Notes: a model not told the origin generated them from the letters alone. A DNA stretch of 64,000 bases from Patescibacteria group bacterium (GCA_028865095.1 JAGWLA010000001.1:137806-201805), one strand, 5' to 3'; counted from the first letter of the stretch, positions 20,266-56,695 are shown. Numbers and translations are program-made.

Positions 20266-20338
20266 ATGGTGTCTCCCCATTTTGCCATATTGGAACCCAT
20301 TGTGCAAGCTCTGCTTTTATGCGATATTACCTCGTGAC

Positions 20339-20412: not shown

Positions 20413-20461
20413 CACTTTGTTTTTCGCCGGATTTCTGGTACATTGATGTCCGTGCCTGTTT

Positions 20462-20535
20462 GCGCCCGTAGTTCAGCTGGCTAGAACGCTCCCCTGTCAC
20501 GGGAGAGGTCGTGGGTTCGAGTCCCATCGGGCGCG
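20462..20535 (+). tRNA. tRNA-Asp (GTC)
   Basis: Cloverleaf with anticodon loop CTGTCAC and T-loop TTCGAGT. Confidence 0.85.
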
Positions 20536-20552
20536 CCGTTCGTTGCAATATG

Positions 20553-20624
20553 CCGATGTAGCTCAGCTGGTAGAGCATTCCCATGGTAAGGGAAAGGTCC
20601 CCGGTTCAATCCCGGGCATCGGCT
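20553..20624 (+). tRNA. tRNA-Thr (GGT)
   Basis: Acceptor GCCGATG/CATCGGC and anticodon loop ATGGTAA. Confidence 0.8.
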
Positions 20625-20655
20625 CCGTATCGTCGCAGCCGCGGGAGCGGCGCAT

Positions 20656-20728
20656 GCCACCTTAGCTCAGTTGGTAGAGCATCCCCTTCGTAAGGGGAGG
20701 GTCCCCGGTTCAAGCCCGGGAGGTGGCT
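20656..20728 (+). tRNA. tRNA-Thr (CGT)
   Basis: Acceptor GCCACCT/AGGTGGC and anticodon loop TTCGTAA. Confidence 0.8.
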
Positions 20729-20747
20729 CAAGGGAAGGGGGAAAGCA

Positions 20748-20824
20748 TGAAGTATTAAGTATTAAGTATGAAGTATAAAGTATGAAGTATAAAGTATGAA
20801 GTATGGAGTATGAGGTATAAAGCA
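20748..20824. repeat. Tandem heptanucleotide repeat (TRAAGTA)x11 encoding overlapping mini-ORFs
   Basis: The sequence is tgaagta ttaagta ttaagta tgaagta taaagta..., giving stop codons in all three frames and six ATG-initiated 3-5 codon mini-ORFs. Confidence 0.8.
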
Positions 20825-26915: not shown

Positions 26916-26989
26916 TGCGGGATCGTCTAATGGTAGGACAACGGACTCTGAATCCGTTTATCTTGGTTCGAATCCAAGTCCCGCAGCCA
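26916..26989 (+). tRNA. tRNA-Gln (CTG) with encoded CCA; integration target of the island
   Basis: Acceptor TGCGGGA/TCCCGCA, anticodon stem ACGGA/TCCGT, loop CTCTGAA, T-loop TTCGAAT. Confidence 0.85.
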
Positions 26990-27023
26990 ACACATGCACC
27001 CTGACCGGAGAGGGTCAATGAAC
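26985..27023. repeat. attL: 39-bp direct repeat overlapping the tRNA-Gln 3' end
   Basis: agccaacAcatgcaccctgaccggagaGggtcaatgaac; 37 of 39 positions match the copy at 51449-51487. Confidence 0.8.
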
Positions 27024-27069
27024 CGATTTTGGTTCTAGACCAAGACCTGTTGATGTGTAAACTATAATC

Positions 27070-27870
27070 ATGACTATCATATGGAAAGATTTTTCATCGT
27101 GGGATGGTATTGTCCGTACCACTATCACACCCGCTAGTGTTTTAGAAGTTATATCAAAAATGAAGCGAGCAGGGGAAGGTGGCTATGTCCAAGATGATCC
27201 CGGATGGCTTCATCCCCTAGAAAACCATCTCGGATATCCAATCAAAGATGCAATAAATAATCTGGCGAATGCGTTAGAAAGAGAAAATATCCGTGTATAT
27301 CATGGTTGCCGTCCGATAGACATTAGCTCATACCTGTCAAAAGGTTTGAAAGTTCATAGACGTAATGAATTGATCAGTGAGCTCAGGAAGATGGTCATGT
27401 CTGATACAAGATTGTCTCGATTTGATTTAGATGGACGAATCGGTGAGGTCAAAAAATCATACGATAATGGCAAACTTTTCCTCGTGTTTGATGATCGATA
27501 CATGATTGAATATGCAGGGCACTATCTGATATATGGTGGCGAATACATAGCAAATGTGCTCAGAGATCATTTGGAAGTTTTGCTCGAAAAAGGGACACCG
27601 ACGATAATCACTGTTGATTTGCCTGGCCGTATGATATCTAGACCAATCCTTGAAGGATTTGCTAAAGATCTTCTTACAGAGTGGACAAGACAAGTAATAA
27701 ATGAGCCAAAGTCAGTCCACATGAGAGACTGTGGTGTTGAGCTTGAATCTGATCTGGATCCGAAATATATAGTTGGTCATGAACATCCGCTGGTTATAAA
27801 AGACCCATGGAATTCTCGTCAGGAATATATTGTTGAGAATAATTGTTGTAGGACTACTCCTCAAGCATAA
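27070..27870 (+). CDS. Hypothetical protein (island-borne)
   Basis: 266 aa, no recognisable motifs. It overlaps the recombinase gene convergently by 17 nt. Confidence 0.4.
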   Translation: MTIIWKDFSSWDGIVRTTITPASVLEVISKMKRAGEGGYVQDDPGWLHPLENHLGYPIKDAINNLANALERENIRVYHGCRPIDISSYLSKGLKVHRRNELISELRKMVMSDTRLSRFDLDGRIGEVKKSYDNGKLFLVFDDRYMIEYAGHYLIYGGEYIANVLRDHLEVLLEKGTPTIITVDLPGRMISRPILEGFAKDLLTEWTRQVINEPKSVHMRDCGVELESDLDPKYIVGHEHPLVIKDPWNSRQEYIVENNCCRTTPQA

Positions 27871-29173
27871 TTTCCTTGTCTTTCATTACGATCTTGCTCC
27901 TGAGCGACTCAAGTATGTGTCGTTTCTCCTCAACCGTTCCTTCTCGTAGGATATACTTCACATACTCTTTCGGATCGGCATTCCTCGACCTCAGCTTCTG
28001 TCCTGCTCCTAGTACACTCTCTTGAAACTTCTGGAATCTATCTATCTCCGCCTTGAGCTTCTTCTTGATACCGATCTTGTCGAGATTGATGCCATCGATC
28101 ATGTTCTCTAGCTGTTTTACGAGTTCCTCCTCGCGCAGGGAAGCATTCTTGCATTCTTTGTCATTGAATCTGGTGCAGGTGTAGTAGACATACCTATTTG
28201 TACCGCCTTTGGCCAGCTTCTTGAACTTCTCGTCGGCGGTGATGCCGGAATTGCAGTAGCCACATCGCATGAGCTTGGTGAAGGCGAACTCTTTCTTTTC
28301 GCCAGTCCTATCTTTGTTGATATCGAGCTTTTGCTGAACCTTGTCGAAGAGCTCCTTGGATATGAGCGGTTCATGCCGGCCCTGATACCATGATTCGCTG
28401 CCTTTCGGGTATTCGAATCTGCCATAGTAGAAGTGATTGCGCAGGATGATGTATATATTGCTCAATGTGAGTAACTTGCCACGCTGCACCCTGAAGTCTA
28501 TCTCCTTGAGCCAGTAGAAGAGCTTTCGCCCGCTCCAGCCGTCATCTGCAACCTTCTCGAATATTTTCTTCACGATCGGTGCTCGCTTGGGATCGGTGTA
28601 TATGATCCCTTTTTCACCAACGAGCTTGCTGTTCAGGTATCCTGTCGGTGCCGGTGCAGGCCAGAGCCCCATCTCACAGCGGATCTTTAGCCCACGCTTC
28701 ACATTAACGCTCTTGTTGTCGTTCTCCAGCTTAGCTTGGCTTCCCAATATCATGAGGAGGAACTTCTCATTGGGGTTATTGGTAAATCGCTGACTGAATG
28801 TCCTGATCTCTTTCAGTTTCCCTTGATCCATGAGGTCGACGATGGATCCTAAGTCTCCGGCGTTGCGGCTTACTCTATCTGGATGCCAGACGAGGATTGC
28901 ATTAAATTTTCCATCCTTGATATCGGCGACCATCTCATTGAACTTCGGTCTTTGCCCGGTATCTTTGGCTGAATGCGCTTCACGCTTGGTATCGACTACG
29001 TTCAAGCCTTCTCGTGTCGCGAGAGCGAGCATCTCGTTTATCTGCGCATCTATCGACAATGCTTGGCGTTCATCTGATTCCGATGATTTTCTGGCATAGA
29101 GGCAATATGACAGGGTAGTTGCGATCTGAGGCTGCCTACCGCCTAGATCTACCCGTGAGGTTGCTTGTTGCAT
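27854..29173 (-). CDS. Large serine recombinase (resolvase/invertase catalytic domain + recombinase domain + zinc ribbon)
   Basis: N-terminus YCLYARKSSESDE with the catalytic Ser, block VWHPDRVSRN, and a C-terminal Cys cluster CGYC...CTRFNDKEC. Confidence 0.85.
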   Translation of the reverse strand: MQQATSRVDLGGRQPQIATTLSYCLYARKSSESDERQALSIDAQINEMLALATREGLNVVDTKREAHSAKDTGQRPKFNEMVADIKDGKFNAILVWHPDRVSRNAGDLGSIVDLMDQGKLKEIRTFSQRFTNNPNEKFLLMILGSQAKLENDNKSVNVKRGLKIRCEMGLWPAPAPTGYLNSKLVGEKGIIYTDPKRAPIVKKIFEKVADDGWSGRKLFYWLKEIDFRVQRGKLLTLSNIYIILRNHFYYGRFEYPKGSESWYQGRHEPLISKELFDKVQQKLDINKDRTGEKKEFAFTKLMRCGYCNSGITADEKFKKLAKGGTNRYVYYTCTRFNDKECKNASLREEELVKQLENMIDGINLDKIGIKKKLKAEIDRFQKFQESVLGAGQKLRSRNADPKEYVKYILREGTVEEKRHILESLRSKIVMKDKEIMLEE

Positions 29174-29287
29174 GATATGTGCCTGTTAGCTGGCATACAT
29201 CAATCAATGCCGCCACCGGTCCTAAGAGTCCAGGAGGGGTAAGTTGGTAACAATTTTTCCAAAACGGCTTTATTTCTAGCCATTTCT

Positions 29288-30838
29288 ATGGTAGAATTTT
29301 TCTTAACTATGGCCACCCTAAACTGGATCGGTAAAGAAGCTGTTGCAAACCACGACAAAGAGGTTCCTTTTAAGTTGTTAGAGAAAGTTCCAAGTGCATC
29401 AGTTGGAAAGGAATCAAAAAATCTCGTAATTCATGGCGATAACCTTGAAGCACTGAAGGCCCTTATGCCTTTTTATCAAGGAAAGATAAAGTGTATCTAT
29501 ATTGATCCGCCATACAATACCGGAAACGAGGGATGGGTATATAACGATAAGGTAAATTCTCCCAAGATACGTGAATGGTTGTCTCAGGTTGTAAAATCAG
29601 ATGACCTGACTAAGCACGATAAATGGTTGTGCATGATGCAACCAAGACTCAAATTGCTTAAGGAGCTACTTTCTGATGATGGTTTTATATTTGTAAGTAT
29701 TGACGATCATGAACAGCAGTATTTATCCCATTTAATGAACGAAATGTTTGGTGAGGGAAATTTCGTTGCTAATTTCATATGGAATCACAGGAAGTCAAGC
29801 CAGAATGATATTGATATATCACTGTCGCATAATTACACCTTTTGTTATGCACGTAACAGATCAAAGTTTAAATTGAATCCTCTTGAAATTGATGGCAGCA
29901 AATTTTCTAACCCAGACAATGATCCAAGAGGTGACTGGGTAGCAGACCCTATGGATGCACCTGCTATTCGAGAAAATTTAATGTATCCAATTACCAACCC
30001 CAAAACAAAAAAAGTCTATTTGCCGCCACCTGGTAGGCATTGGAGGTTTTCAAAGGAGAAGTTCGAGCAAGCTATAAAGGATAATCGTATTTTATTTGGA
30101 AAGACAGGTAATTCTAAACCTCAATATAAGCGGTTTAAAAGCGAAGCGGTACTAAAAGGTACTAATGTTTTTACGATATGGGATGACGTAGGAACTGCAA
30201 CTGAAGGGACACAAGAGCTCATGGATCTTTTTGATGGCAAAAAGGTTTTTGATACACCAAAACCCACTTCATTTATCAAGAAAATTCTCAAATTGGCCTC
30301 AGGAAAAGATTCGATTATCCTAGATTCCTTTGCAGGATCAGGAACTACAGCACATGCTATTTTAAGTCTAAATAGTGAAGAGAAGGGTTCAAATAGGAAG
30401 TTTATTCTTGTCGAAATGGAAGATAAAGTTGCCAGAGATATTACAGCAGCACGCGTTGAACGAGTTATAAAAAAGTATAATTTTGAAGATGGTTTTGAGT
30501 ATTGTGAACTCGCTAAGCCTCTATTCGATAAGGCGGGACAAATAAATGAATCGTGCTCATATGAAGAGCTTGCTTCTTATATCTACTTCACTGAAACACA
30601 AACGAATATCGATAAGAAGGCGATTAAAAACCCATTCATTGGTGAAAGTCACGGTATATCGTATTACCTTGTCTATACTGGCAAAGGAAAAAATGAGATA
30701 AACCGCTCCTCGCTTTCTAAGTTGAAAATAGTTGGTCAAGCAGTTATATACGCGGATCGGTGTCTTGTCGATGAAGATGAACTTAAGGAAAAGGGAATTA
30801 CATTCAAACAGATCCCGTACGAGATAAAAATATACTAA
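29288..30838 (+). CDS. Type III restriction-modification methyltransferase (Mod, N6-adenine)
   Basis: DPPYNTG catalytic motif; AdoMet motif FAGSGTT downstream (beta-class motif order). Confidence 0.8.
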   Translation: MVEFFLTMATLNWIGKEAVANHDKEVPFKLLEKVPSASVGKESKNLVIHGDNLEALKALMPFYQGKIKCIYIDPPYNTGNEGWVYNDKVNSPKIREWLSQVVKSDDLTKHDKWLCMMQPRLKLLKELLSDDGFIFVSIDDHEQQYLSHLMNEMFGEGNFVANFIWNHRKSSQNDIDISLSHNYTFCYARNRSKFKLNPLEIDGSKFSNPDNDPRGDWVADPMDAPAIRENLMYPITNPKTKKVYLPPPGRHWRFSKEKFEQAIKDNRILFGKTGNSKPQYKRFKSEAVLKGTNVFTIWDDVGTATEGTQELMDLFDGKKVFDTPKPTSFIKKILKLASGKDSIILDSFAGSGTTAHAILSLNSEEKGSNRKFILVEMEDKVARDITAARVERVIKKYNFEDGFEYCELAKPLFDKAGQINESCSYEELASYIYFTETQTNIDKKAIKNPFIGESHGISYYLVYTGKGKNEINRSSLSKLKIVGQAVIYADRCLVDEDELKEKGITFKQIPYEIKIY

Positions 30839-30843
30839 CTACC

Positions 30844-33120
30844 ATGAATCTTAAACGTTATCAAACAAACGCGATTGAAACGCTGGACAAATTCTTGGAA
30901 CTTTCCAAGAAGATGAAACCTCGCCATGCTTTTAATGAGATTACTGAACAAGTTTACAATCATGAGTGGTTCAATGATGTCCCATTTGTCTGTATCCGTA
31001 TTCCTACTGGTGGCGGTAAGACGCTCGTAGGATGTAAGTCTGTGGAGCGGATAATGAGCACTACGCTCCAGAATAAAATGGATACAGGTATAGTGATGTG
31101 GTTTGTACCATCCGATTCAATAAAAAAGCAAACGCTTGAGAAGTTTAGAGATCCGAAAGATTGGCATTATCAAATGCTTCATGAATCTTTTGGTGCAAAG
31201 ATTCAGATTCTTTCAAACGAGGAAGCTCTTACTATTTCACTGGAAAACGTAAGAGATAATTTGTGCATAATTGTAGCGAGCCTTGATGCGTTTCGTAAGG
31301 ACGCTTCCATACAGAAGAAATATAAGGTTTATAAGGAGAACGGTTCCTTGATGGGACACTTTGAGAATCTGAAGAATGATACCAATCTCGAAAAGGATTC
31401 AGATAATACGGTCATAAATTCTCTTGCAAACGTAATCCGCAAAAACAACCCACTCATCGTTATTGATGAAGGACATCATACTCAAACGGATCTCTCTGTA
31501 CGTTTTTTGTCTGATCTGAAGCCAGCTTTTATCATCGAATTTACCGCCACTCCGCGTGACGGTAGTAATGTTCTTGTTAAGACTAGTGCTTCTGAATTAA
31601 AAGTCGAGGAAATGGTGAAGATTCCTATTGTCTTAGAAAGTCGTTCGCAGTGGGAACAGGTTGTTTTAGACGGTATCACGAAGCGTAATGAGCTTGAGAA
31701 GAATGCTAAAAAACTAAAAGGAGAATATGTTCGCCCGATCGCATTATTGCAGGCTCAACCTGTTAGTAAGACGAGATTAACTGTTACTGTTGAAGCCTTG
31801 AAGGAAATGCTCCTTAAGCACAAAATTCCTGAAGAGCAAATAAAGATAAAAATATCAGGATTAGATGAACTTGAGGGGATAGATCTTTTCGATAAGAAAT
31901 GCGAGGTTCGTTATATTTTGACTGTAAATGCACTGGCAGAAGGTTGGGATTGTTCTTTTGCTTACGTGCTTATATCTGTCGCAAATCTAGGAGCGAAAAT
32001 AGCGGTTGAACAGATCATCGGTAGAGTTATTCGTATGCCGCATGCACGACGAAAATCTGACGAATCTCTCAATAGGAGTTATGTGTTTGCTTCTGCCGCC
32101 AAATTTGATGAAGCCGCTTCAAAAGTTATCAAAGGGCTCGAAGATAATGGATACAGCAGGTCCGATTTTGTGCAAGCGAGTGGAGAAAAAGATTATAACG
32201 ATCCACTAGAAGCTAAAAAAGCTGTTAAAAAAGATCTGAAGGTTCCAATAATGGCCATTGGTAAGGATAAACTCGCATTCGAGGATTTACTCAGTGAAAA
32301 TTTTGAGTTGGCGAAGGAGGATCCGGATTTCGATTTTAAAATTCACTATGATCTCGATGGGCAGGCGACTATAGATATCACTGAAGATGACGAATGGCTA
32401 CAGGGTAAACAGTTGTCATTGTCTTTTCAGTATTTGGAAGGTGAACATACAGTAGAAGAGTTGGCATCTTGGCTTGACAAAAAGTTACGTTTTCCAATGG
32501 TGAACCCTGCCGACAAACTTTCATTTATCGAAAAGGCTATACAAATACAGATCAAGAAGCATAAGCGCTCACTTCCTGAACTTTCAGTTAATCGCTACTT
32601 GTTAGCTGATCGTCTTGGTACAGTTATTACTGATCGTCTTGAGTCTCACGCCAGAAAAAACTTTGATAAGCTCATTTCATCCAAGAAAATATCGACCAGT
32701 GTTTTTGATGCTTATCCTGATACCATAGCTCTCAAGTCACCTCTAGCTAAAGTCTTCAATAAGAATCTATACGAGAGAATTGATGCTGTTAATGGTGAAG
32801 AGAGGGGGTTCGTCGAACGTATGGATCTTGGTACTCTAGACAATATCGAATTTTGGGTCCGCAATCGCGAAAAGGTCGATCCGTTTTACATACAAGGTTG
32901 GAGGAGGGGTAAATTCTATCCGGACTTTGTAGCAGTAACTAAAAAGGGAAATATTGTCGCACTTGAGTGGAAGGGGGAGGATCGTATAAGTAATGAGGAT
33001 ACTGCGTATAAGGTCGAAATCGCAAAAGAATGGGAAAAGTTAGGTAAAGGGAAACTCCACTTTTTCCTTGTACATAATGGAAACGCGGAAGAAGTTCTCA
33101 ATGCTATAAAAAATCTGTAG
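30844..33120 (+). CDS. Type III restriction endonuclease Res subunit (SF2 helicase + nuclease)
   Basis: Walker A TGGGKT, DEAH-like VIDEGHH, helicase motifs. It lies 6 nt after mod. Confidence 0.85.
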   Translation: MNLKRYQTNAIETLDKFLELSKKMKPRHAFNEITEQVYNHEWFNDVPFVCIRIPTGGGKTLVGCKSVERIMSTTLQNKMDTGIVMWFVPSDSIKKQTLEKFRDPKDWHYQMLHESFGAKIQILSNEEALTISLENVRDNLCIIVASLDAFRKDASIQKKYKVYKENGSLMGHFENLKNDTNLEKDSDNTVINSLANVIRKNNPLIVIDEGHHTQTDLSVRFLSDLKPAFIIEFTATPRDGSNVLVKTSASELKVEEMVKIPIVLESRSQWEQVVLDGITKRNELEKNAKKLKGEYVRPIALLQAQPVSKTRLTVTVEALKEMLLKHKIPEEQIKIKISGLDELEGIDLFDKKCEVRYILTVNALAEGWDCSFAYVLISVANLGAKIAVEQIIGRVIRMPHARRKSDESLNRSYVFASAAKFDEAASKVIKGLEDNGYSRSDFVQASGEKDYNDPLEAKKAVKKDLKVPIMAIGKDKLAFEDLLSENFELAKEDPDFDFKIHYDLDGQATIDITEDDEWLQGKQLSLSFQYLEGEHTVEELASWLDKKLRFPMVNPADKLSFIEKAIQIQIKKHKRSLPELSVNRYLLADRLGTVITDRLESHARKNFDKLISSKKISTSVFDAYPDTIALKSPLAKVFNKNLYERIDAVNGEERGFVERMDLGTLDNIEFWVRNREKVDPFYIQGWRRGKFYPDFVAVTKKGNIVALEWKGEDRISNEDTAYKVEIAKEWEKLGKGKLHFFLVHNGNAEEVLNAIKNL

Positions 33121-33122
33121 TT

Positions 33123-33917
33123 ATGAATCCAAGAGGGTGGACTAAAACAGAATTAGAAGAATGGCTCAAGAACCCTCTTACGCAGGAAAGAAAAGGTTTT
33201 GATCTTAAGGCAATAATTCCTCCACACGATGCGGGCAAGAATGATCTCAAAAAAGATTTTTGTGGTTTTGCAAACGGAACGGGCGGTTTTCTCTTTTTCG
33301 GTATCAAAGACGACAAGTCAATAATTGGAATAAATGAGGACAATAATTTTACGACTAGGATAAGTGAAATTGTCACGAAACACATTTTTCCTACAACAAT
33401 ATTATGGGATCTCTGTGCATGTATAAAAGTCGATAGTGGGAAATGTGTTTATGTTATTGAGATTATTGAGAGTCCTTATTGGCAAAAACCTCACGTGTTT
33501 TTCCGCGAAAGCGACGGTCTTTTCATACCCTTGAGGGAGAATGGAAATAAAAGAAACATTACGGATGGTTCTGAACTGAGAAGAATATGTTTAAAGACAG
33601 ACAATTATTATCCAGAATACAATACACACGTCCTTAATATTCTCAGAGAATTGAAAAACAAACCGAGACCATTTTTTAGTCTAACTGATGCTGTTATTAT
33701 TCAAGGGTATAAATCGTTCTTACGTTCCCAGTCTGAGACACAATACGGACAAATTCTTATCGAAATTGAGAACATAGAAATGGCTGTGGCCGAATTGAAC
33801 AAGAAGCATTTTTCAGGAGTTGCGGACGGCAATCCAATTGTTTCTGCAGATCAAGATGGTAAACTCGGCAAGTTGGTCGATGATTTTGTTTCAAACTTTG
33901 GCAGACAAATAATATGA
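33123..33917 (+). CDS. AlbA_2 / Schlafen-like divergent-AAA domain protein
   Basis: ERKGFDLK...DFCGFANGTGGFLFFGIKDD matches the AlbA_2 core (E..EFK...AFANt.GG.L..GV.D). Its start lies 3 nt after the res stop. Confidence 0.55.
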   Translation: MNPRGWTKTELEEWLKNPLTQERKGFDLKAIIPPHDAGKNDLKKDFCGFANGTGGFLFFGIKDDKSIIGINEDNNFTTRISEIVTKHIFPTTILWDLCACIKVDSGKCVYVIEIIESPYWQKPHVFFRESDGLFIPLRENGNKRNITDGSELRRICLKTDNYYPEYNTHVLNILRELKNKPRPFFSLTDAVIIQGYKSFLRSQSETQYGQILIEIENIEMAVAELNKKHFSGVADGNPIVSADQDGKLGKLVDDFVSNFGRQII

Positions 33918-36900
33918 AAAAGATGACAAGTGGACAAGCGAACATTGCAGGGATAAATGCACAGGTATGGGCAGCTATGTCCTTGTTCTTGCAATTTCTG
34001 CGTGACCCGAGATTTATACAAATTCATCTTGAAGCTCCAGGTTTTCAAGATTTTAATCTTCTATTTAATGATGGTAAGAAAATCATCTGTGAATCCAAAG
34101 ATAGAAAACAGCCCTTTAACTACGCTGATCTTAAAAAGATACTGAAAAATGTCGCTGGTAATCAATCCCTCTCAAAGGACGATGAAATTTTAATTGTTTG
34201 CCGATCTGCAAACAAGAATCTTGTGAGTGATGTAAGACATGGACGTTATTTCGAAGAGATCAAAAATAAATTTAAAAAGAAGGGCTATTCTGATGCACAG
34301 GTGAGCTTACTGCAAAATGTAAAATTCTGGGTAATTCCACCTTCGTTTAATGAGCAGATTATCTATTCTTTATTTACTGATCTCGTAAGCTTTTGGCTAC
34401 CGGCAAGTGATATCGAGAAAATTGTCGACAATATTTTGGTGCAAAAAATCTATAAAGGATCGGCAAAGGGAGCTACCTATAGCAGAGTTGATATTTTAAA
34501 AGAAATAAATCAGCTTGCTGATGATGCAAAAAACAATAGTGTTTATTATAACGATGGTTTGCAAAAAAGAGAGGATCAGTTTTCCAATCTTGAGAAAGCT
34601 CTCAGTAATCCTAAAGATGGAACCTGGAATATACCAAAGGAACTCTCTGCATTTTCCACAGATTATGAAAGGTTAAGATTTGCGACAAATCGGCTAACCA
34701 ACCAAAAAGACATTCTTAATCTTTCGGAGTGGGACCCTCTATGGCAGTTAAACAAGGTGTATTTTTTCACTTTTGGTATTTTTACTATTTTTGAAAATAA
34801 TCTACATACAAAGGAGAACAGGGATTATGTAATTGGGCATATAAAAAAATATGTTAAACAGATTAGAGGTTTTTATCAGGCAGATTTTTTCAATGTAAAT
34901 GTGGTGAAATTAGTCGGTAAGATCATCGATGGCCCAGATGGGGGTCAATATCTTATTCGAGCCTACGATATTATTAAAGACCTCATCACTTCAAACGAAA
35001 AGGAATTTTTCTACATGAAGGAGAATGGCTATGACCACGGACAATGGGAAAAAGGTGAAATATGCAAGCTCTTGCAAAAAATCTATCATCATAAAGATGC
35101 CGATGAAGCCTTAAAGCAAAAAATCTTTAATCTCTCAATTACCGCCTTTAATCTTATAGAAGACGAAGGAGAGTTTAGCCATCATACACCCCCTGAAATA
35201 TTTGCGATTTTGGCAAGTTGGCTTCAAGAAGATTTCATTAATCGTTTCAAAAAAATAGTAAAGATTCTTGCAGATCAATACGATAAATACTACAAACAAT
35301 TCGGTAAGAAGATGGCTTTCGCCGGATGGGAGCATATGGGTGGCGGCATATCATTCAGTGGCGGTTATCATGCTTCGGACCGACATTTTATGGGAATTCT
35401 TGCACCTGCGATAAGGAAATATTATGACCTCAATCCCACTGAGGGTTGGAAGCTCATCAAAGAAAAGTGTATCAGTAAGACAAATCAGGTAAGTAAAACA
35501 CGTCCGGATTTTCTTAATAGGGCAGTTTACGAGATTGTCTTAGAAAGATATGCCCAGGACAACAAGACCATTGCTGCTGAAGCATTCTCCATATTGAGTG
35601 AATTGATCCTTTCTCGGAAAGGTATTCCGCATAAGTCTGATCTCATTTACCAGACGGTACGCGGGATGGCAATTTCAGATGATAAAAAATGGAAACTCGT
35701 TGAGTTAACTGCAAAAAAATACGGAGTACCAGTTAATCCATTTGCCGAGCAAATTATTGCGGGTCTCGCTAAGAAAGGACATGTGGAAGCCAGAGCAGAA
35801 CTTAAACGATGGTTTGCTGAACCAAAGTATTATCATCGATTCATGTTCGGCGAAGACGCAGTTTCCACAATTAAAGCATTGCTTGATAGCGATCTCAATT
35901 TTGCTGTTGAGTTATTCCAAGCGTTGCTTGATAGTTATTATTTTAAGAATGGTAAAAGTGACAGTTTAAGTCCTTTTACGGTTGCCGCCTTACTCCAGGT
36001 TATCTTAAGCAAGGACTATGCTAAAGGTCTCGGTCTCTTGAGATTTCTAGAGTCACAAGAGGTATTGACCAAAGATCAGCAATCAATTTATTGTTTCAGT
36101 TTGTTTAACAATCACGGCAATGATGATTCAGACGACATCGAATTGCTGATGAAAGTATATAAAGATGTAATTGATCCTTTATTAATCAAGTTTGATGACA
36201 CTGAAAAAATTGTTAAGAGATTTCCCAATGATGGCGCGCGAGCTGCTCTCGTACAGTTTGCTGTTCGTCTGGCGGTAAAAAAGAAAATGACAGAGGCTCT
36301 TAGGATTATCAAATCATTTGTTAGTGATCCTGATCCATATTTAACCGATAAGGACCCAAATGATCCTAAGAATGAATATAACGAGCAAAAAAGGATTGAA
36401 GAAGGAAAAGAACCGAACAATATTACCTCTGTACGCGGTTGGTGTGGTTGGGCATTGATGAAATGCTCGGTCCTAGAAGGTCGTGAAAAAATCCCAGAAA
36501 TAATTTCTTTAGCTTCAAAACTTGCTGAGGACAGAAATTATTACGCGGTTCATATGGCTACATTTGCACTTGCCCAGTTGGCAAAAAATAGATTGACGGT
36601 CTTACCGGATAACAAAGAGGTACTTTTTTTCAACGACGATAAGACAAAGGCACTAAAAATGGCAAAACAAATTGAGGGCATTGCCTTTAAACTACTCGAG
36701 CAACTTCTTTCGTGGCCCGAAAAGGTTCAAATAGCCATGTCAAAAAGTGTTCTACACGTTTTCGATCCTATACGATCACTCAATGAACAAGATGCACTTC
36801 ATCTGATTGAAGACCTTGCCAAACTTCCAAAAGAAACAGTAGCTGAATCCGCACCGTTGTTCATATATTTTGCTGAATTTCGAAAGGATGCCTACCCAGA

Positions 36901-37546
36901 TTGGAAATTTAGTGCCCCTGGCCTTTATGATGATCTGGGTCCAGATAAATATAATGAGAAGAAATTCAAGAAAATTCTTATTGAGACTGTGCACCGGCTC
37001 CAAAAAAATGACCCGAATAGTTGCTTCAGATTTGCTGCTTCCGTAGAACATCTGACACGAGAGCCTGGAGATGGGGGTATTAAAAAATATACCGATCTTG
37101 CTTTGGAATATTTTGATTTTCTTACGGACGCTTATGGTCATAACATATACAATCTTATCTACATGACCATTGAGGCAAAACTTCAAAAACCTGATGATTA
37201 TTTAGACCAATGGTTCAACCTTTTGATAAAGTGCTTCAAAATTGAGGGGGAATTTTATCGAAAAGAAATAAAAGCAGGTAATGCGGCAAAGGTTTATTGG
37301 TACCCAACTTTGTATCACTCAAGGATAGTAGAGTTAGTTAACGAACGATTTGATAAAGAAAAGTTTATGGAGATTGCGAAGATATTCTTCAATTTTCCTA
37401 AAGAGCTCGATTTAAATGAGTCAGATGGACTAATATCTCTTCTTAGGGAATTTGCAAAGACTGATCCAGAGGCAAAGACCATTCTCCAAAACTTGCTTAA
37501 AAAGAGCCCAAGCAAGTATTGGTATCTTAGGGATGAGTTGAAATAA
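33914..37546 (+). CDS. Large (1210 aa) uncharacterised protein: N-terminal Cap4/HamA(DUF4297)-like nuclease motif plus about 1000 aa of alpha-helical (HEAT/ARM-like) repeats; candidate defence effector
   Basis: N-terminus SGQANIAGINAQVW...IHLEAPGFQDFNLL...IICESKDRK (G..A..G..AQ followed by an E/D...E-x-K triad). No Walker A. Low-complexity helical remainder. Start overlaps the upstream stop (ATGA). Confidence 0.45.
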   Translation: MKKMTSGQANIAGINAQVWAAMSLFLQFLRDPRFIQIHLEAPGFQDFNLLFNDGKKIICESKDRKQPFNYADLKKILKNVAGNQSLSKDDEILIVCRSANKNLVSDVRHGRYFEEIKNKFKKKGYSDAQVSLLQNVKFWVIPPSFNEQIIYSLFTDLVSFWLPASDIEKIVDNILVQKIYKGSAKGATYSRVDILKEINQLADDAKNNSVYYNDGLQKREDQFSNLEKALSNPKDGTWNIPKELSAFSTDYERLRFATNRLTNQKDILNLSEWDPLWQLNKVYFFTFGIFTIFENNLHTKENRDYVIGHIKKYVKQIRGFYQADFFNVNVVKLVGKIIDGPDGGQYLIRAYDIIKDLITSNEKEFFYMKENGYDHGQWEKGEICKLLQKIYHHKDADEALKQKIFNLSITAFNLIEDEGEFSHHTPPEIFAILASWLQEDFINRFKKIVKILADQYDKYYKQFGKKMAFAGWEHMGGGISFSGGYHASDRHFMGILAPAIRKYYDLNPTEGWKLIKEKCISKTNQVSKTRPDFLNRAVYEIVLERYAQDNKTIAAEAFSILSELILSRKGIPHKSDLIYQTVRGMAISDDKKWKLVELTAKKYGVPVNPFAEQIIAGLAKKGHVEARAELKRWFAEPKYYHRFMFGEDAVSTIKALLDSDLNFAVELFQALLDSYYFKNGKSDSLSPFTVAALLQVILSKDYAKGLGLLRFLESQEVLTKDQQSIYCFSLFNNHGNDDSDDIELLMKVYKDVIDPLLIKFDDTEKIVKRFPNDGARAALVQFAVRLAVKKKMTEALRIIKSFVSDPDPYLTDKDPNDPKNEYNEQKRIEEGKEPNNITSVRGWCGWALMKCSVLEGREKIPEIISLASKLAEDRNYYAVHMATFALAQLAKNRLTVLPDNKEVLFFNDDKTKALKMAKQIEGIAFKLLEQLLSWPEKVQIAMSKSVLHVFDPIRSLNEQDALHLIEDLAKLPKETVAESAPLFIYFAEFRKDAYPDWKFSAPGLYDDLGPDKYNEKKFKKILIETVHRLQKNDPNSCFRFAASVEHLTREPGDGGIKKYTDLALEYFDFLTDAYGHNIYNLIYMTIEAKLQKPDDYLDQWFNLLIKCFKIEGEFYRKEIKAGNAAKVYWYPTLYHSRIVELVNERFDKEKFMEIAKIFFNFPKELDLNESDGLISLLREFAKTDPEAKTILQNLLKKSPSKYWYLRDELK

Positions 37547-37560
37547 ATCTCAAATATAAT

Positions 37561-38214
37561 ATGGGAAAATTAAGTCAATCTGGTGTTGGGTTTTGGTACG
37601 GAAAATTAAAGTCCCAACTGGAGTTATTAAAGGAGAAAAAGGATAAGGAACCACTAGAGCGAGCATTTGCCCTCGACATAGCCTTGTCATATCTTTTCCT
37701 CTATTTGTTTATAGAATCGACGATTGATCAATTAGCTATGAATTTATTTCCGCAAGTACTTCGGCTCAATAGTTATGATAAGTATAAATCTCAGCGACGA
37801 AATATATATCAGAAGGTCGAATATCTTTTTGGGAGCTTTTGTTCGATACTACCATTTCAACGGTACTCTGATCTAAGAGACAAAATAAAGCCGATAACAA
37901 ATATGAGAAATAATGTAGTCCATCTTGAAGAGATGGTTTGGTATGTAAATGATCTTTTTGATAAAGAAGGGAAAATGAATAGTCATCATAAAGAGATTCC
38001 CAATAAATATACAAAGGATCTAACAATAACTGCTTTACGAAATCATTATGAATCAGCGTGGGAATTTCTGGAGGTATTTAGGGTAACTCTTAATGACGGA
38101 CTCGGAAATAGAAGTATTGAAGTCAATTATGATGGTGAGAAAAGGACTATAAATCTCGTTGATTATATGTATGAAATCTCGGTTGTTCCACCAAAGAATC
38201 GAGTTGAATTTTGA
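37561..38214 (+). CDS. HEPN-domain protein (Abi-like, Rx4H motif)
   Basis: 217 aa. The motif MRNNVVH fits the HEPN Rx4-6H signature. It lies 14 nt downstream of the large gene. Confidence 0.45.
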   Translation: MGKLSQSGVGFWYGKLKSQLELLKEKKDKEPLERAFALDIALSYLFLYLFIESTIDQLAMNLFPQVLRLNSYDKYKSQRRNIYQKVEYLFGSFCSILPFQRYSDLRDKIKPITNMRNNVVHLEEMVWYVNDLFDKEGKMNSHHKEIPNKYTKDLTITALRNHYESAWEFLEVFRVTLNDGLGNRSIEVNYDGEKRTINLVDYMYEISVVPPKNRVEF

Positions 38215-38339
38215 TTTGAAACCAGTATTCTAGATCATAAAAATTGATGCATTGTCATCTTAAACTCTTTTTGATACTCTAATATCACAACTGAATATGA
38301 GCAGCCTAAACCCTTTGACAAGGGCATGGCTCACAAGAC

Positions 38340-38386
38340 CCGATAAAGAATACTGAACCCCACGTTCAGCGACTCTTTATCGGGCC
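38340..38386. other. Long near-perfect hairpin in the 258-nt intergenic leader
   Basis: 11-bp arms cccgataaaga...tctttatcggg plus nested tgaac...gttca. Confidence 0.5.
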
Positions 38387-38472
38387 ATATCGGGAAACTG
38401 GTATGGGGCCGCAAGGCCTAAAGCTAGCGTGGGGCTTAGTGTATCTACACTTGTCCTCACGCCATGTAACCC

Positions 38473-39384
38473 ATGGCAATATTTCAAATACACAACGAAG
38501 CGGTCAAAAAGATACCGCCCATAAAGATAGGGAAGGAAAAGAACATCCAAGAACTTTTTGAGAAAAACCTCGAAGAGATTTTAAACATTAGATTTTTGGC
38601 TACTGAATATTCAACGAGCTTCGGCGGCAGGATAGACAGCCTCGGCGTTGATAATAATGGATCACCGGTCATCATCGAATACAAGAAGGGTCAGAACGAT
38701 AACGTCATCAACCAGGGACTTTCGTACCTTCGTTGGCTCCTTGATCACAAAGCCGACTTCGAGGCATTGGTAAAGAAGAAAAATATCACTACCGACATCG
38801 ATTGGGCATCACCACGAGTTATTTGTGTCGCTGAAAGTTACAACAAATTCGATCTCGATACTGTTGATCTCCTACCGATGGATATTGAGCTTCTTCGATA
38901 TCAGCTCTATGACAGCGGTATACTCCTTGTCGAGCCGGAGGTGCAACGGAAGATCAAGATATCGACTGGAGATATCTTCGACCGGAGTGAGAAGCATAAG
39001 AGGGAATTCAAAGACAAGATCCACTATACCGTCGATGAGCATATAAAAGCGGCTAGTCCGCATATCCAGCACATATTTTCTATGCTGAAAGAGCGCATCT
39101 CCGCTCTAGACGAGTCGATCATCGAGGAAGCAAAAGCAAAGTATATCGCTTACAAGCTCACGACCAATTTCTGTGATGTCGTCATCTTGCGTGATTCGCT
39201 CAAGATATTCATCAACGTACCGAGCGGAGAACTCGATGATCCTCATAGTCTCGCCAGAGATCTCACGAAGCCTAGGCTGGTCGGACATTGGGGAAATGGT
39301 GACTATGAAGTGAAGCTCGAGCGCGAAGAAGATCTGCCAAAGGTCATGTCACTCATAGAACAGGGTTATACATACAACAAATGA
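38473..39384 (+). CDS. PD-(D/E)xK nuclease-superfamily protein (NucS/DUF91/DUF4263-like core)
   Basis: GRIDSLGVDNNGSPVIIEYKKG is a D...(D/E)xK restriction-endonuclease-fold motif. An unrelated C-terminal half follows. Confidence 0.5.
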   Translation: MAIFQIHNEAVKKIPPIKIGKEKNIQELFEKNLEEILNIRFLATEYSTSFGGRIDSLGVDNNGSPVIIEYKKGQNDNVINQGLSYLRWLLDHKADFEALVKKKNITTDIDWASPRVICVAESYNKFDLDTVDLLPMDIELLRYQLYDSGILLVEPEVQRKIKISTGDIFDRSEKHKREFKDKIHYTVDEHIKAASPHIQHIFSMLKERISALDESIIEEAKAKYIAYKLTTNFCDVVILRDSLKIFINVPSGELDDPHSLARDLTKPRLVGHWGNGDYEVKLEREEDLPKVMSLIEQGYTYNK

Positions 39385-39470
39385 CTCTATTTCAAACTGT
39401 TGGTAACTTCGCTTCGCAAGGCCTTGAATCCAAGCTAAGGTAGCACACATTACCCATTAACCACATAACT

Positions 39471-39947: not shown

Positions 39948-41486
39948 CTAGAATTTCATTTTATCCCACCCTCTGGTGATAGGGAATCTCGATTCTCGCC
40001 ATTGTTCCCAGCCGTCGTCACCTTTCTCAGGAGGCCTCTTGGGTGGCAGGAGAGAGAACGGATGATATCCTTTATTTGACTTTGGCACTTCCGATGCGAC
40101 GAGGGAGAATGCATCACAGAGGTCGTCGTATCGTTCATTACCTAGATTAGTGATCTGTGAGATGAGTGTCTCATTACCTTTGTCAGCAAAGAGAACGGTG
40201 CCATTCTTTATATACGACGAAAGAACAGCGAGCCGCGATCGTTTGTCACCCTTGGATATGACTGAGTCGGCATTATATCCCTCAAGTTGCAATCTGTCTG
40301 CCGCGGAGACTTGATAGCCATTACCTTCGATATAGATCTTAGCCCTTCTATTTGCTTCCGTGGTGTCAGCGAGCACCTTGATCATGTCATAGCCCTGCAC
40401 TGAATTGAGGTGCTCATTCACGGGATTGGGCGCGATGTATATTCGAGTATGTTCTCTCCAGCCGAATACGTGAGCTACAACCATAGCGGTCTTGTCGGAC
40501 GTCTCGCTCTCCGACCAGGCAAGGTCGACGCCGATGAACGATCCGCGATATTGATTGTCGTGGGTCATTGGGGGCATGGCATGGTAATACTGGATCCATT
40601 CAGGATGGATAACTCTCTCGGTACTTGAAACGATGTGAAGCAGGAACTCTTGATGCCAGGCTCGATCATTGCCGATGCGCTTACGCTCAGCTTCGACTGC
40701 ATCCATGTCTGGATATTTGCTTTTCCAGAGTATATTGCCTGAGGCATCAATGAGCGGATACTCTCTGTACACACCGCTTCGTTTGCCGGCCTCGATCTCT
40801 TTCTTAAAGCGCATCATGATCGAATCCTCATGAAGGAGGGTGCCGAGAAGCACGATGCGCAGATTAGGCAGGTTTCCCGAAGGTATGGCATCCATGGTGA
40901 CCCAGTCATAGGTCTTGTTTCTGCCCTCGAGCGTCTTTACCGATTCGTCATCCTCGATATCGTCCAAGATGAGAAGGTCGGTGCGATACTGTTTGTATCG
41001 CATACCGCGTAAGCTCTGTTCGGTCGAAGCGAAGGTGATCTGCGCGTCATACTTGGTGAGGATGATTGATGAACCCCATTGTGATTCCTCCGTTCTGAAT
41101 GGCCCGAGGTCGTTTCGTAAGAGTTTGTTGCTTTCGAACTCGCGCTTAATGTTCTGGAAGTGCTGCTTGGCCTTGGCCTGTGTACGACTGACGATGATGA
41201 CCATCTTTTTCTCCGGCGCACCCAAGACCGACCAGATGGCAAGAGCGGTATTCAGTATCGCCGATTTGGCGCTGTTTCTGGCTGCCATGATGGTGATCGT
41301 CTGGTGTATCGGATCTTCCGCGAGATGGAACATCTCGGCATGGAAGGGTGCGATAGTGTAGTCGATATAGTGGCTTAGGTATGTACCAAAGAAATACCTG
41401 AAGCTTGTCCGAGTGATCTTGCGTCGCAGATTCTCATCATGCACCATGAGGTCGATGATATGTTTGATTTCCTTTTCAGTCTCCAT
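39948..41486 (-). CDS. Phage terminase large subunit (TerL)
   Basis: N-terminal ATPase (Walker A-like MAARNSAKS, Walker B LLILDDIED) and C-terminal RNaseH-like nuclease. Start at the ATG overlapping the terS stop. Confidence 0.75.
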   Translation of the reverse strand: METEKEIKHIIDLMVHDENLRRKITRTSFRYFFGTYLSHYIDYTIAPFHAEMFHLAEDPIHQTITIMAARNSAKSAILNTALAIWSVLGAPEKKMVIIVSRTQAKAKQHFQNIKREFESNKLLRNDLGPFRTEESQWGSSIILTKYDAQITFASTEQSLRGMRYKQYRTDLLILDDIEDDESVKTLEGRNKTYDWVTMDAIPSGNLPNLRIVLLGTLLHEDSIMMRFKKEIEAGKRSGVYREYPLIDASGNILWKSKYPDMDAVEAERKRIGNDRAWHQEFLLHIVSSTERVIHPEWIQYYHAMPPMTHDNQYRGSFIGVDLAWSESETSDKTAMVVAHVFGWREHTRIYIAPNPVNEHLNSVQGYDMIKVLADTTEANRRAKIYIEGNGYQVSAADRLQLEGYNADSVISKGDKRSRLAVLSSYIKNGTVLFADKGNETLISQITNLGNERYDDLCDAFSLVASEVPKSNKGYHPFSLLPPKRPPEKGDDGWEQWRESRFPITRGWDKMKF

Positions 41487-41907
41487 GGTGATTGAGATTA
41501 GATGTTGGTAAGGTGACGAGGGTAAGGGCTCGGCGAACAAGCGCTTCCTGTTCAGGGGAGAGGACATATTCCTGTTCGACTGTAGCGGTGACTTGGAGCT
41601 TATTCGAATAATCAGGATGATGCTTCTCCAGCCAGAACTTGATAGCGCCCAAGTTCTTGTCTTTGATGGCGGAGATGAGCTGGGATATGGCGATATCGGA
41701 TATGAGGCTCTTGCCTTCGCTCATGGCTTTGTCGACCGCCGTGGCAAAGTCTTTGTCCGCTTCACGCCAGCGATAGAAGGTGGCTTTGGAGACGCCGGAG
41801 CGCTCGCAGGCGATCTGGATGACAGGATTCTTTTCCAAGATCTGGATGAACTGCTCCTTGTCCTTCTTGATCCTCGCATTCACCGCCTTACGCTGCTTTT
41901 CGTTCAT
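41476..41907 (-). CDS. Phage terminase small subunit (HTH)
   Basis: 143 aa. HTH segment ACERSGVSKATFYRWRE. It lies immediately upstream of and overlapping terL. Confidence 0.55.
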   Translation of the reverse strand: MNEKQRKAVNARIKKDKEQFIQILEKNPVIQIACERSGVSKATFYRWREADKDFATAVDKAMSEGKSLISDIAISQLISAIKDKNLGAIKFWLEKHHPDYSNKLQVTATVEQEYVLSPEQEALVRRALTLVTLPTSNLNHHGD

Positions 41908-43234
41908 GGATTTTGACCGCTTTCTGGCCAGTTAGAAGCTGCCACCTTCGTCTGATAATCTCGGCGTAGACAGGGGACTTCTCCATGGTGTAGCAACGCC
42001 TGTGCATCTTGATGGCCGCCGCCCCTGTCGAACCGCTGCCGCCGAATGGCTCCACGATGAGATCATCGCGCTTAGTCATGACTTTGATGTAGGGAATGAG
42101 GATCTCTAAAGGCTTAGTGCCAAAGACGACACCTTGTCCTGATGACTTCTCATCAGCTGCCACATACTCGATGAAGTCGGTCGGCTGATACTTTTGACCC
42201 TTCTTGTATCCCTCCCAATGTGGTTTGCCTTGGATGGCATAAAGGGCAGTTTCATATTCGTTCTGGAAGATTTCAGCCTCGGGGCGCATATTAAGGCCGC
42301 GAGCTTTTTCGGACGATCCAACCATAGCGATATCGTGCTTGGAGAAGAGCTTGCAGGCGCCGGAGAAGCCTTGATTCCGGTTAGGGAGGTGCCAGACGAT
42401 CATGTTCCTGACTTTCCAATGCTTTTCCATCTCGCCCCAAATGGTGCGGATGTTCTTCCAGTTCTCATACACGATGATGTGGAAGTCATCCTTTGATATA
42501 TTCTTGACGCTCCGCATCCAGAGCTCCGTGAAGTTGTCAGGCAGGGAATCAGTCTCTAGATATCGTCTATCTCGCTTAGCTCCGAAGCCGGTCACGGCTG
42601 AGCCGTTCTTCTTTTTGCCGTGAAGATAATCTAAAATATAAGGAGGATCCGTCAGGCACATGTCGGCCTTCTCTCCATCAAGGAGCGTCTTCATGTCATC
42701 GGCTATAGTCGAGTCTCCGCACATGAGCTTGTTCGGTCCTATCTGCCAGACATCGCCCTTCTTGATCTCGATCGTCTTGATATCGAGCTTCTTTAGCTCC
42801 TTTTCAAGGTCGAATTGCTCGGGCGTATCGTCGTCCTCGAAGATGTGGTCAAGCTCTTCGCTCGAAAATCCGACCTCCGAGAGGAAGGCTTCGTCGAATT
42901 CAGCAAGCAAGTCGAAGTCCCATTCGCCGGTCGCTTTGTTGAGGCGGACGATCAAGTCCATCTCTTTTTTGCGGTCGGGGACGTTGATGTATACCACGGG
43001 CACTTCCTTGACCTTCATGCTTCGGAGCACGAAAGCGCGGAAGTTGCCGCCCAATATGACGCCCTTTCTGCTCGGGGCAGAGTTGACGATGAGTGGGTCG
43101 ATGATGCCGTGAAGCTCGAGACTCTCTTTGAGCTTCTCGGTCGCGACTTTCGACCAGTGACGCGGATTTTTCTCCGGGTGGCGGAGGGAGGCAAGGGGCA
43201 CGTACGCGATCTTGAGATCGTTCATTGTTCTCAT
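41888..43234 (-). CDS. ParB-like nuclease domain fused to DNA methyltransferase (phage-type)
   Basis: N-terminal ParB/Srx-like region (LRHPEKNPRHW), then methylase motif CLTDPPY and AdoMet motif EPFGGSGST. Confidence 0.75.
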   Translation of the reverse strand: MRTMNDLKIAYVPLASLRHPEKNPRHWSKVATEKLKESLELHGIIDPLIVNSAPSRKGVILGGNFRAFVLRSMKVKEVPVVYINVPDRKKEMDLIVRLNKATGEWDFDLLAEFDEAFLSEVGFSSEELDHIFEDDDTPEQFDLEKELKKLDIKTIEIKKGDVWQIGPNKLMCGDSTIADDMKTLLDGEKADMCLTDPPYILDYLHGKKKNGSAVTGFGAKRDRRYLETDSLPDNFTELWMRSVKNISKDDFHIIVYENWKNIRTIWGEMEKHWKVRNMIVWHLPNRNQGFSGACKLFSKHDIAMVGSSEKARGLNMRPEAEIFQNEYETALYAIQGKPHWEGYKKGQKYQPTDFIEYVAADEKSSGQGVVFGTKPLEILIPYIKVMTKRDDLIVEPFGGSGSTGAAAIKMHRRCYTMEKSPVYAEIIRRRWQLLTGQKAVKIHERKAA

Positions 43235-43745
43235 ATGAGTATGGCTCTGTATGCGCATAGGGAAAAACCCAAGGCAAACAAAGCAGATTAGACGCGAGAT
43301 TTGGTTTTCCAACCTTCTCGTAGTAAATAATGCTTCTGTTTGTTTTCTTGGGATTCCTGACCGTAAATAGTCTGAGAATCCGGCCAAATCATATCAGTGT
43401 ATCCAAAGTCGGTAGCTTACGCTGCTTTCCCGGGAGCCGGTATGGTTTGTCTAAGCAGAGAAGTCTCCTCGGTGTTATCTTCGGATGCTTCTTTATCTGC
43501 TCAGCGACTGTATGTTCCTTGCAGTCGATACGCCGGTGCTTTTTTCGGTGTGAACTTTAAAAAGCGACGTTGATATAATTATAACGGTTTTGTGGAAATT
43601 TGCTAGCACTATTCTATTGCAGATTGTCATGAGCTATGCCGTTTTCTAGTTGTTCTTTTTCCGCTTCCTGTTCCGAGTCTGCTCCCAATATCTTGAGAAT
43701 AAGACACCAAAAATAGCCACGAAGACTGTCTCATTAGTGGTTCAG

Positions 43746-56672: not shown

Positions 56673-56695
56673 GCCGACTTCTGTTCCGATGATAC

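Follow-up and report, generated by a model that had tools for sequence, protein, structure and literature searches.

The close packing of a Type III restriction-modification (R-M) gene pair with three further genes, found in a 64,000-nucleotide (nt) stretch of DNA from a genome labelled Patescibacteria (termed here the window), raises the question of which of these genes belong together and whether they act in defence against phages. The three genes encode a 264-amino-acid (aa) AlbA_2/Schlafen protein, a large protein of 1210 aa with a Cap4-like head and a helical-repeat body, and a 217-aa HEPN-like protein. A first-pass annotation of the window had taken the trio, co-operonic with Type III R-M, as one candidate defence unit. 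Comparison with about 40 related loci, in 29 of which the upstream side can be evaluated, gives a different picture. The conserved core consists of the large protein and a translationally coupled, swappable upstream gene, and this partner and the large protein are all that is conserved of the proposed unit. With moderate confidence, the region is read here as a mobile, unnamed anti-phage module, in which the swappable partner and a Cap4-solenoid protein devoid of a nucleoside triphosphatase (NTPase) would act as sensor and effector without depending on Type III R-M. The five genes are as follows.

29288-30838, plus strand: mod, Type III R-M methyltransferase
30844-33120, plus strand: res, Type III R-M restriction subunit
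33123-33917, plus strand: AlbA_2/Schlafen gene (264 aa), upstream partner of the large gene
33914-37546, plus strand: large gene (1210 aa), Cap4-like head and helical-repeat body
37561-38214, plus strand: HEPN-like gene (217 aa), in a downstream slot and specific to this locus

Direct reading of the junctions agrees with the open reading frames (ORFs), coordinates and tight spacing first annotated. The mod and res genes are 5 nt apart. The res stop codon TAG (33118-33120) is followed by a TT spacer and by the ATG of the 264-aa gene at 33123, the stop of this gene and the start of the 1210-aa gene overlap in an ATGA (33914-33917), and the TAA of the large gene (37544-37546) is separated by a 14-nt gap from the ATG of the 217-aa gene at 37561. 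The peptides singled out earlier, GQANIAGINAQVW, HLEAPGFQDF, ICESK and MRNNVVH, are all present in the translations. The five genes have one shared composition, with a guanine-plus-cytosine (GC) content of 0.34-0.40, compared with 0.60-0.69 in the flanks and 0.445 in the next gene downstream. That the ORFs arose by chance is ruled out by their relatives, of which 162, nearly equal in length, are known for the 1210-aa protein and 12 for the 217-aa protein, and by the AlbA_2 protein passing the Pfam cut-off. Since a promoter and terminator scan of the block gave counts equal to those of shuffled sequences and was uninformative, it is the spacing and overlap of the five genes that suggest co-transcription.

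Upstream partners of the large protein

The large-protein family has at least 162 members, with a constant length of about 1,185-1,225 aa. Its hosts are mostly members of the Candidate Phyla Radiation (CPR)/Patescibacteria, and it occurs sporadically in Legionella, Deltaproteobacteria, Margulisbacteria, Saccharibacteria, Elusimicrobia and Armatimonadota. In about 24 of the 29 evaluable loci an upstream gene ends between -32 and +5 nt from the start of the large gene, typically with a 4-nt overlap. The genes that occupy this position come from five mutually unrelated families.

AlbA_2/Schlafen, 7 loci: Pfam match above threshold, Ex4(E/D)xK motif
Stand-alone Cap4_nuclease, 6 loci: PF14130 above gathering score
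Cap4-like family, 4 loci: hhalign E-value 4e-5
Weakly Mrr-like family of about 200 aa, 4 loci: Mrr_cat E-value 0.016
Family of about 360 aa, 4 loci: D...ExK-like pattern, motif read by eye

Of these partner families, at least five in number, two are supported as predicted nucleases, and the remaining three may be nucleases as well. Partner types are scattered over the tree of large proteins, and sister proteins can differ in partner; the partner thus has been swapped often. A clean natural example of swapping is found in a syntenic island from Doudnabacteria (L043, 915-13534). Mod, Res, the large protein and the recombinase of this island are respectively 53%, 61%, 49% and 54% identical to those of the window; a HEC-05 (GmrSD-like) gene is inserted after res, and the Mrr-like partner of about 200 aa replaces AlbA_2.

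In one Deltaproteobacterial locus (L003) an AlbA_2 gene and the large-protein gene are found by themselves among ordinary genes, and therefore the two appear to form the minimal unit. In the window this unit corresponds to 33123-37546, and the HEPN gene and Type III R-M would be optional context. Tight coupling (4-nt overlaps; L008-L045) is frequent on the downstream side of the large gene as well, but the family in this slot differs in nearly every locus. It holds PDDEXK_1/Cas4-like, DUF2726 and DUF2779 proteins, a possible PIN protein, a TspO/MBR membrane protein, and proteins of no known family.

This raises the question of whether the genes are simply stacked defences, i.e. whether the Schlafen, Cap4-solenoid and HEPN proteins are each autonomous and are co-operonic with R-M through tight packing of the island. 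The changing downstream slot would fit such an arrangement, as would five loci, Legionella included, where the large gene has no coupled partner (L001, L012, L032, L035 and L044) and where the large protein may therefore work alone. On the other hand, five unrelated families filling the same coupled position in about 24 of 29 loci are not readily explained by stacking, and neither is the persistence of the pair alone outside an island context in L003. Independent genes are on balance considered unlikely, and the individual proteins bear on the matter further.

Predicted folds and active sites

The large protein has two parts.

33914-34534, plus strand: residues 1-207, Cap4/HamA/LmuA-like PD-(D/E)xK nuclease domain (predicted)
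34568-37504, plus strand: residues 219-1197, HEAT/ARM-like alpha-solenoid, putative sensor or scaffold

Conserved residues of the head are G7, G13, Q17, E40, D46, E60, K62 and D90. Among 112 homologues E40, D46 and E60 never vary and 90% or more retain K62 and D90, which gives the catalytic D...(D/E)xK signature. The AlphaFold model of residues 1-215 has a mean predicted local distance difference test score (pLDDT) of 81 and displays an alpha-beta-beta-beta-alpha-beta PD-(D/E)xK core, a modelled fold of the Cap4 type. The close structural relatives of the head are all immune effectors. Fold and catalytic residues together support the head as a catalytically intact Cap4/HamA/LmuA-like DNA endonuclease domain whose activity is predicted. 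The resemblance to DUF4297/Cap4/HamA proposed in the first-pass annotation is upheld at the level of fold and catalytic residues; at the level of family profile hidden Markov models (HMMs) it is not, as a Pfam search with 29 N-domain sequences gave no PF14130 match even at E-values up to 10. A PDB profile search with the N-domain found nothing relevant, and one with the large protein found no solved relative by sequence. The large protein has no match in Pfam, NCBIfam, PADLOC or PHROGs beyond weak HEAT. In an all-against-all hhalign comparison the sole relation detected was that among the Cap4 partners, the Cap4-like partners and the N-domain of the large protein.

The full-length model (residues 1-1200, pLDDT 89.3) predicts helical repeats from residue 219 onward, apart from one short beta-hairpin. 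Invariant residues of the solenoid are P531, D532, R536, P572, K574, P606, R776, D805, P808, R841 and R990. Structural and profile matches of this part are to generic HEAT only. No Walker A motif is found in 111 of 112 family members, and a Walker A-like string is present in the remaining one. The window protein has no NTPase or helicase match in Pfam, and no NTPase match was obtained in 30 members. An earlier description of some 1000 helical-repeat residues with no helicase or NTPase motif is thus borne out by the model and by the Walker A and Pfam scans. The solenoid is conserved evenly and strongly along its length. The ligand may accordingly be a conserved one, such as a structure formed by nucleic acid or a signal related to R-M.

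The 264-aa protein matches Pfam SLFN_AlbA_2 (PF04326) with an E-value of 1.4e-12 and 48.7 bits, the gathering cut-off being 25.3. It has the motif E22-RKGF-D27-L-K29, i.e. Ex4(E/D)xK, which is kept in all seven orthologous partners recovered; its C-terminal half is unannotated. Schlafen tRNases of both humans and prokaryotes have Ex4(E/D)xK as their catalytic motif (PMC13056530, PMC13462974), and prokaryotic Schlafens protect against phage (PMC13056530, PMC13462974, PMC13552941). The assignment to AlbA_2/Schlafen made at first pass is confirmed by the Pfam match and the motif, and the protein is supported as a prokaryotic Schlafen-type nuclease with an intact site and a predicted RNase activity.

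Schlafen proteins provide some of the points in favour of independently acting genes. In Enterococcus a Schlafen whose C-terminal half is unannotated provides defence by itself (PMC13552941), and 97% of prokaryotic Schlafens (pSlfns) carry a fused sensor domain of their own (PMC13056530). Against this stands the linkage of the present subfamily to the large protein. Close relatives of the AlbA_2 protein of the window are few; both of those checked directly are situated immediately upstream of a large-protein homologue, and for two more the linkage is implied, as their contigs match in length contigs that carry large-protein homologues.

The 217-aa protein is probably a HEPN protein and a putative RNase. 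R116, H121, E124 and W127 are invariant in 13 of 13 family members, and the motif in the window protein is R116-N-N-V-V-H121. The residue after R116 is mostly N across the family, so that the Rx4-6H pattern with its polar residue is present. Six different HEPN models score below threshold, and no other fold family recurs. The sub-threshold matches are to HEPN_Apea (four members, best E-value 0.0058), RiboL-PSP (two members), Cthe2314 and HepT, and further to Cas13a (0.0027) and CARF_HEPN (0.00067). A PDB profile search with the family found no HEPN and noise only (McrB N-domain, E-value 0.13). Of the HEPN claim made earlier, the Rx4H motif stands, being invariant in 13 members, and the model matches all remain below threshold.

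The 217-aa family is small, with 12 relatives among 1.84 billion representatives. Its HMM has no match among all ORFs neighbouring the other large-protein genes, and the HEPN link of the first-pass annotation thus is not seen at the other loci examined. None of the four other loci of the 217-aa family has a large-protein fragment, and three of these begin at contig ends. The relatives concerned (L047:88-768, L048:411-1061 and L049:127-831) start within 90-420 nt of the contig end; assemblies tend to break just upstream of the HEPN-like gene. Where the upstream context is readable, the family is not beside a large-protein homologue, which again is what independent genes would predict. The distribution suggests that the HEPN-like gene is a locus-specific add-on in a hypervariable downstream slot.

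Restriction-modification neighbours and the surrounding island

The Mod and Res assignments are sound. Mod matches PADLOC MTase_III (7.2e-174) and Pfam N6_N4_Mtase (2e-34), and has DPPY and FAGSGTT motifs in its translation. Res matches PADLOC REase_III (1.6e-88) and Pfam ResIII (8.4e-17); it has the helicase motifs TGGGKT and DEGHH, and a PD...EWK nuclease motif can be read at its C-terminus. By sequence the adjacent beta-class N6/N4 methyltransferase and the superfamily 2 (SF2) helicase with a predicted PD-ExK nuclease are a bona fide Type III pair, as first annotated.

In the related loci, same-strand genes directly upstream of the partner and large-protein pair are found at gaps of -4 to 57 nt. 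The genes in this neighbourhood vary.

Window and L018: Type III R-M directly upstream
L007 and L020: Type IIG directly upstream
L009 and L014: Type I HsdS or HsdR directly upstream
L012 and L045: YgjP-like peptidase between HsdR and the large gene
L051: Methylase_S/HsdS gene upstream (Pfam)
L043: HEC-05/GmrSD-like gene directly upstream

Three loci (L003, L050 and L005) have the pair with no adjacent R-M. In L005 (5668-7131, the same as L024) a KAP-family P-loop NTPase (PADLOC PDC-S20, E-value 2e-11) is located just upstream of a Cap4 partner and large-protein pair; a recent report places KAP NTPases with a defence role in the vicinity of serine recombinases (PMC13552941). Other recurrent neighbours are serine recombinases or integrases, Shedu, PDC-S18, PDC-S20 and Vsr, and most genes around the large-protein genes are defence genes. 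The context is therefore that of chromosomal defence-island cargo, often behind R-M and tied to no single R-M type. The Type III link drawn in the first-pass annotation gives way to one that varies between Type I, IIG, III and HEC-05, or is absent.

The repeated adjacency invites the proposal that the pair guards R-M, i.e. that it senses the inhibition of restriction by anti-restriction proteins, or products of restriction such as DNA ends, and triggers abortive infection. Models for such a guard are PrrC, which guards EcoprrI, and PARIS, which responds to Ocr. The pair lies directly behind R-M genes of four classes, on the same strand and often overlapping; the Mod-Res-large-recombinase block has been co-inherited in the window and L043 at 49-61% identity; a conserved ligand, for instance a DNA structure, would agree with the even conservation of the solenoid; and more than half of defence-linked prokaryotic Schlafens adjoin R-M or other nucleases (PMC13462974). 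It should be pointed out, however, that the type of adjacent R-M is not constant, that L003, L050 and L005 have no R-M beside the pair (a KAP NTPase is upstream in L005), and that a physical or regulatory link to R-M is conjectural. As R-M genes are abundant in CPR genomes, adjacency may be passive. A guard function is thus quite unlikely. Equally doubtful is a broader version, in which the Cap4-solenoid family would be a hub of NTPase-free sensors with plug-in partners, mechanistically coupled to R-M and reading restriction failure or its products. In that case the plug-in partners would be Schlafen and Cap4 nucleases along with Cap4-like, Mrr-like and other predicted nucleases, the strongly conserved solenoid would recognise a universal signature of restriction failure or restriction products (DNA ends, anti-restriction proteins) and would switch on a DNA and an RNA nuclease together, and the module would be a generic second line attachable to any R-M type.

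The independence of the module from Type III R-M, which is favoured here, leaves its mobility to be considered. The other features of the island and its surroundings are these.

26916-26989, plus strand: tRNA-Gln(CTG), identified by ARAGORN, left edge of the low-GC island (context only)
27854-29173, minus strand: large serine recombinase (Pfam Resolvase 1e-21, Recombinase 4.7e-17, Zn_ribbon_recom 6.6e-09)
38473-39384, plus strand: PDC-S18 candidate defence gene, 303 aa (PADLOC PDC-S18 7.5e-95, Pfam DUF5655 3.1e-11)
39948-41567, minus strand: terminase large subunit (phrog_38, 5e-66)
41888-43387, minus strand: ParB-DNA methyltransferase fusion
45713-48073, plus strand: phage ATPase (phrog_12316, 2e-109)

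GC content falls from 0.65 to 0.41 just past tRNA-Gln, which is likely to be the integration site of the island; a direct repeat of the tRNA-Gln 3' end was not found elsewhere in the window. The serine recombinase, divergent from mod, is the mobility gene of the island. A 266-aa ORF (27070-27870, plus strand) is without a match in any of Pfam, PADLOC, NCBIfam and PHROGs; it is convergent with the recombinase gene, and the 3' ends of the two share 17 nt. Ten other loci have a homologue of the window recombinase (22-56% identity) no more than 7 kb from the large gene, at 36% identity or more in seven of them, and L050 has one as well. In L007 the pair is among conjugation genes (TraG, TrbL and a relaxase). 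No member of the large-protein family occurs among PLSDB plasmids, INPHARED phages or IMG/VR contigs.

The mobility genes bring up a non-immune role, either as an addiction or stabilisation module, where a toxin nuclease would be restrained by the solenoid, or as a DNA-processing factor of the serine-recombinase element, with a nuclease used in transfer or competitor exclusion. A recombinase or integrase recurring beside the pair, the conjugation setting of L007 and the placement of a low-GC island in a high-GC host are all compatible with this. Yet a role of this kind is very improbable, given the absence of the family from PLSDB, INPHARED and IMG/VR, the close structural relatives of the head, every one of which is an immune effector, the predominance of defence genes among the neighbours, and the presence of the pair away from mobility genes in L003.

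Beyond the five genes, the PDC-S18 protein has a NucS/PD-(D/E)xK-like N-terminus and DUF5655; from the 258-nt gap and its different GC content (0.445) it is regarded as a separate defence unit in the same island. A prophage-like stretch with a GC content of about 0.5 extends from 39948 to about 53000, and a prophage, or else a neighbouring element, may carry the defence block as cargo at its end. The flanks (1-27000 and 54000-64000) have a GC content of 0.60-0.69, compared with about 0.37 in the island (27000-39400). The island GC content and the taxonomy of its homologues are typical of CPR, and the genome, which is metagenome-assembled, is labelled Patescibacteria by NCBI. The mismatch between flanks and island points either to a high-GC host with acquired CPR-type DNA or to a binning or labelling issue. 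Lower-GC patches are found also at 18000-20800 and 3000-7000 and may be additional islands; the 18-20 kb patch (GC 0.41-0.47) adjoins five tRNA genes (Met, Met, Asp, Thr and Thr; 20191-20729).

Mechanism and relation to known systems

Two precedents suggest how the module might work. In Cap4, Avs3, LmuA and HamA the nuclease domain of Cap4 type is kept in an inactive state, and oligomerisation or release switches it on (PMC12278908, PMC12663957). DSR2, a protein of about 1,000 aa, has an N-terminal effector and a HEAT-like solenoid sensor and is free of any NTPase; the binding of a phage component activates it (PMC11850899, PMC11263360). From these a solenoid-gated nuclease is proposed. At rest the solenoid, as sensor and scaffold, would keep the Cap4-like domain inactive, and probably also the partner nuclease, with which it would interact physically. 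A conserved infection cue would bind the solenoid and cause a conformational change or oligomerisation, whereby the nuclease domains might be brought together, as in Cap4, Avs3 and LmuA, and the partner released or licensed. DNA would be cut and, at this locus, tRNA or other RNA might be cleaved by the Schlafen partner, with abortive infection or direct destruction of the phage as the result. The HEPN-like protein could be an optional extra effector at this locus. The module is carried on serine-recombinase islands and very often follows R-M genes directly, where it would add a second line to the defence.

Several points weigh against this interpretation. The nuclease activities are predictions from motifs and fold, no HMM ties the head to PF14130, and the window protein has no Pfam match. 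The hhalign comparison revealed no docking motif shared among partner families, and, as described above, five loci have no coupled partner at all. As a Schlafen protein with an unannotated C-terminus defends alone in Enterococcus (PMC13552941), the partner in the window may be autonomous too. The even conservation of the solenoid is unlike that of sensors that chase fast-evolving phage proteins. The figure for R-M-like homologues no more than 7 kb away (14 or more of 35 loci) is a raw count. Finally, neither DSR2 nor the tetratricopeptide repeat (TPR) domains of Avs appear in the 50-60 best structural matches listed for the solenoid.

If the module is nonetheless defensive, it would be a widespread unnamed system with at least 162 members, most of them in CPR/Patescibacteria, a group from which few defence systems are known so far (PMC12366544). 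It would indicate that control of a Cap4-type nuclease can be exerted by an NTPase-free, HEAT-like solenoid, a logic seen earlier with the SIR2 effector of DSR2, and that a separate upstream gene for a putative nuclease can be exchanged between closely related systems. Prokaryotic Schlafen nucleases would moreover acquire a natural setting of two genes, and the repeated position behind Type I, IIG and III genes would make it a tractable case for the wiring of second-line defences to restriction.

Neither PADLOC v2 nor Pfam nor NCBIfam contains a model for the large-protein family, and no description of it was found in the literature searched. The remark in the first-pass annotation that the gene combination is no named defence system is in accord with this: the combination has no PADLOC v2 match, and none was found in the literature searched.

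Of known systems, DSR2 shares with the large protein an NTPase-free effector joined to a HEAT-like solenoid. Its effector is a SIR2 NADase and it has no coupled partner, whereas the head of the window protein is PD-(D/E)xK by model and has no SIR2 match. Since DSR2 is not among the top matches, the likeness is one of analogy and not homology. Avs proteins, exemplified by Avs3 (SeAvs3, PDB 8dgc), are defined by a central STAND ATPase and have TPR repeats; the window protein lacks both a Walker A motif and an NTPase domain, its repeats are predicted to be HEAT/ARM-like, and it has a separate swappable partner gene. An identity with Avs was rejected for lack of an NTPase (one Walker A-like string in 112 members, and an all-helical model after residue 219). 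In Hachiman and AbpAB an SF2 helicase, HamB or AbpB, restrains the nuclease or senses, whereas here the predicted nuclease is fused to the solenoid and the module has no helicase. Hachiman was rejected on the same ground, as the only nearby helicase is the Type III Res and the loci beyond the window lack a helicase. LmuA of Lamassu needs the SMC-like LmuB, and Cap4 needs SAVED and a CD-NTase signal, neither of which is present in the module; Lamassu was thus rejected for want of an SMC, and CBASS for want of a SAVED domain and a CD-NTase. Upx, a restriction-endonuclease-containing single-gene defence of about 1,200 aa described by Gao, has no sequence or fold match to the large protein. The Patescibacterial ‘Dallas’ and LdgA were rejected by their description, as they come from libraries with inserts of 2 kb on average and reportedly have no homologues beyond Patescibacteria (PMC12366544).

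The partner resembles the pSlfns (among them Cash and the R-M-associated ‘Cluster 4’ with unannotated C-terminal domains), with a Slfn domain, Ex4(E/D)xK, an unannotated C-terminal half and an R-M neighbour, as is known of many pSlfns (PMC13056530, PMC13462974). The published pSlfns, however, are single proteins with fused sensors, and obligatory pairing with a Cap4-solenoid protein of 1,200 aa was not found in the literature consulted. PrrC/EcoprrI and PARIS are comparable in that an effector directed at RNA or DNA is genetically part of, or adjoins, an R-M locus; they differ in that no sequence or fold relationship exists and that dependence on R-M would here be conjectural. Every part of the module is thus of a known kind, i.e. 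a Cap4-type nuclease, a HEAT-like sensor, a pSlfn, a HEPN protein and R-M. What is new is the assembly, a putative NTPase-free effector-solenoid sensor with a swappable partner.

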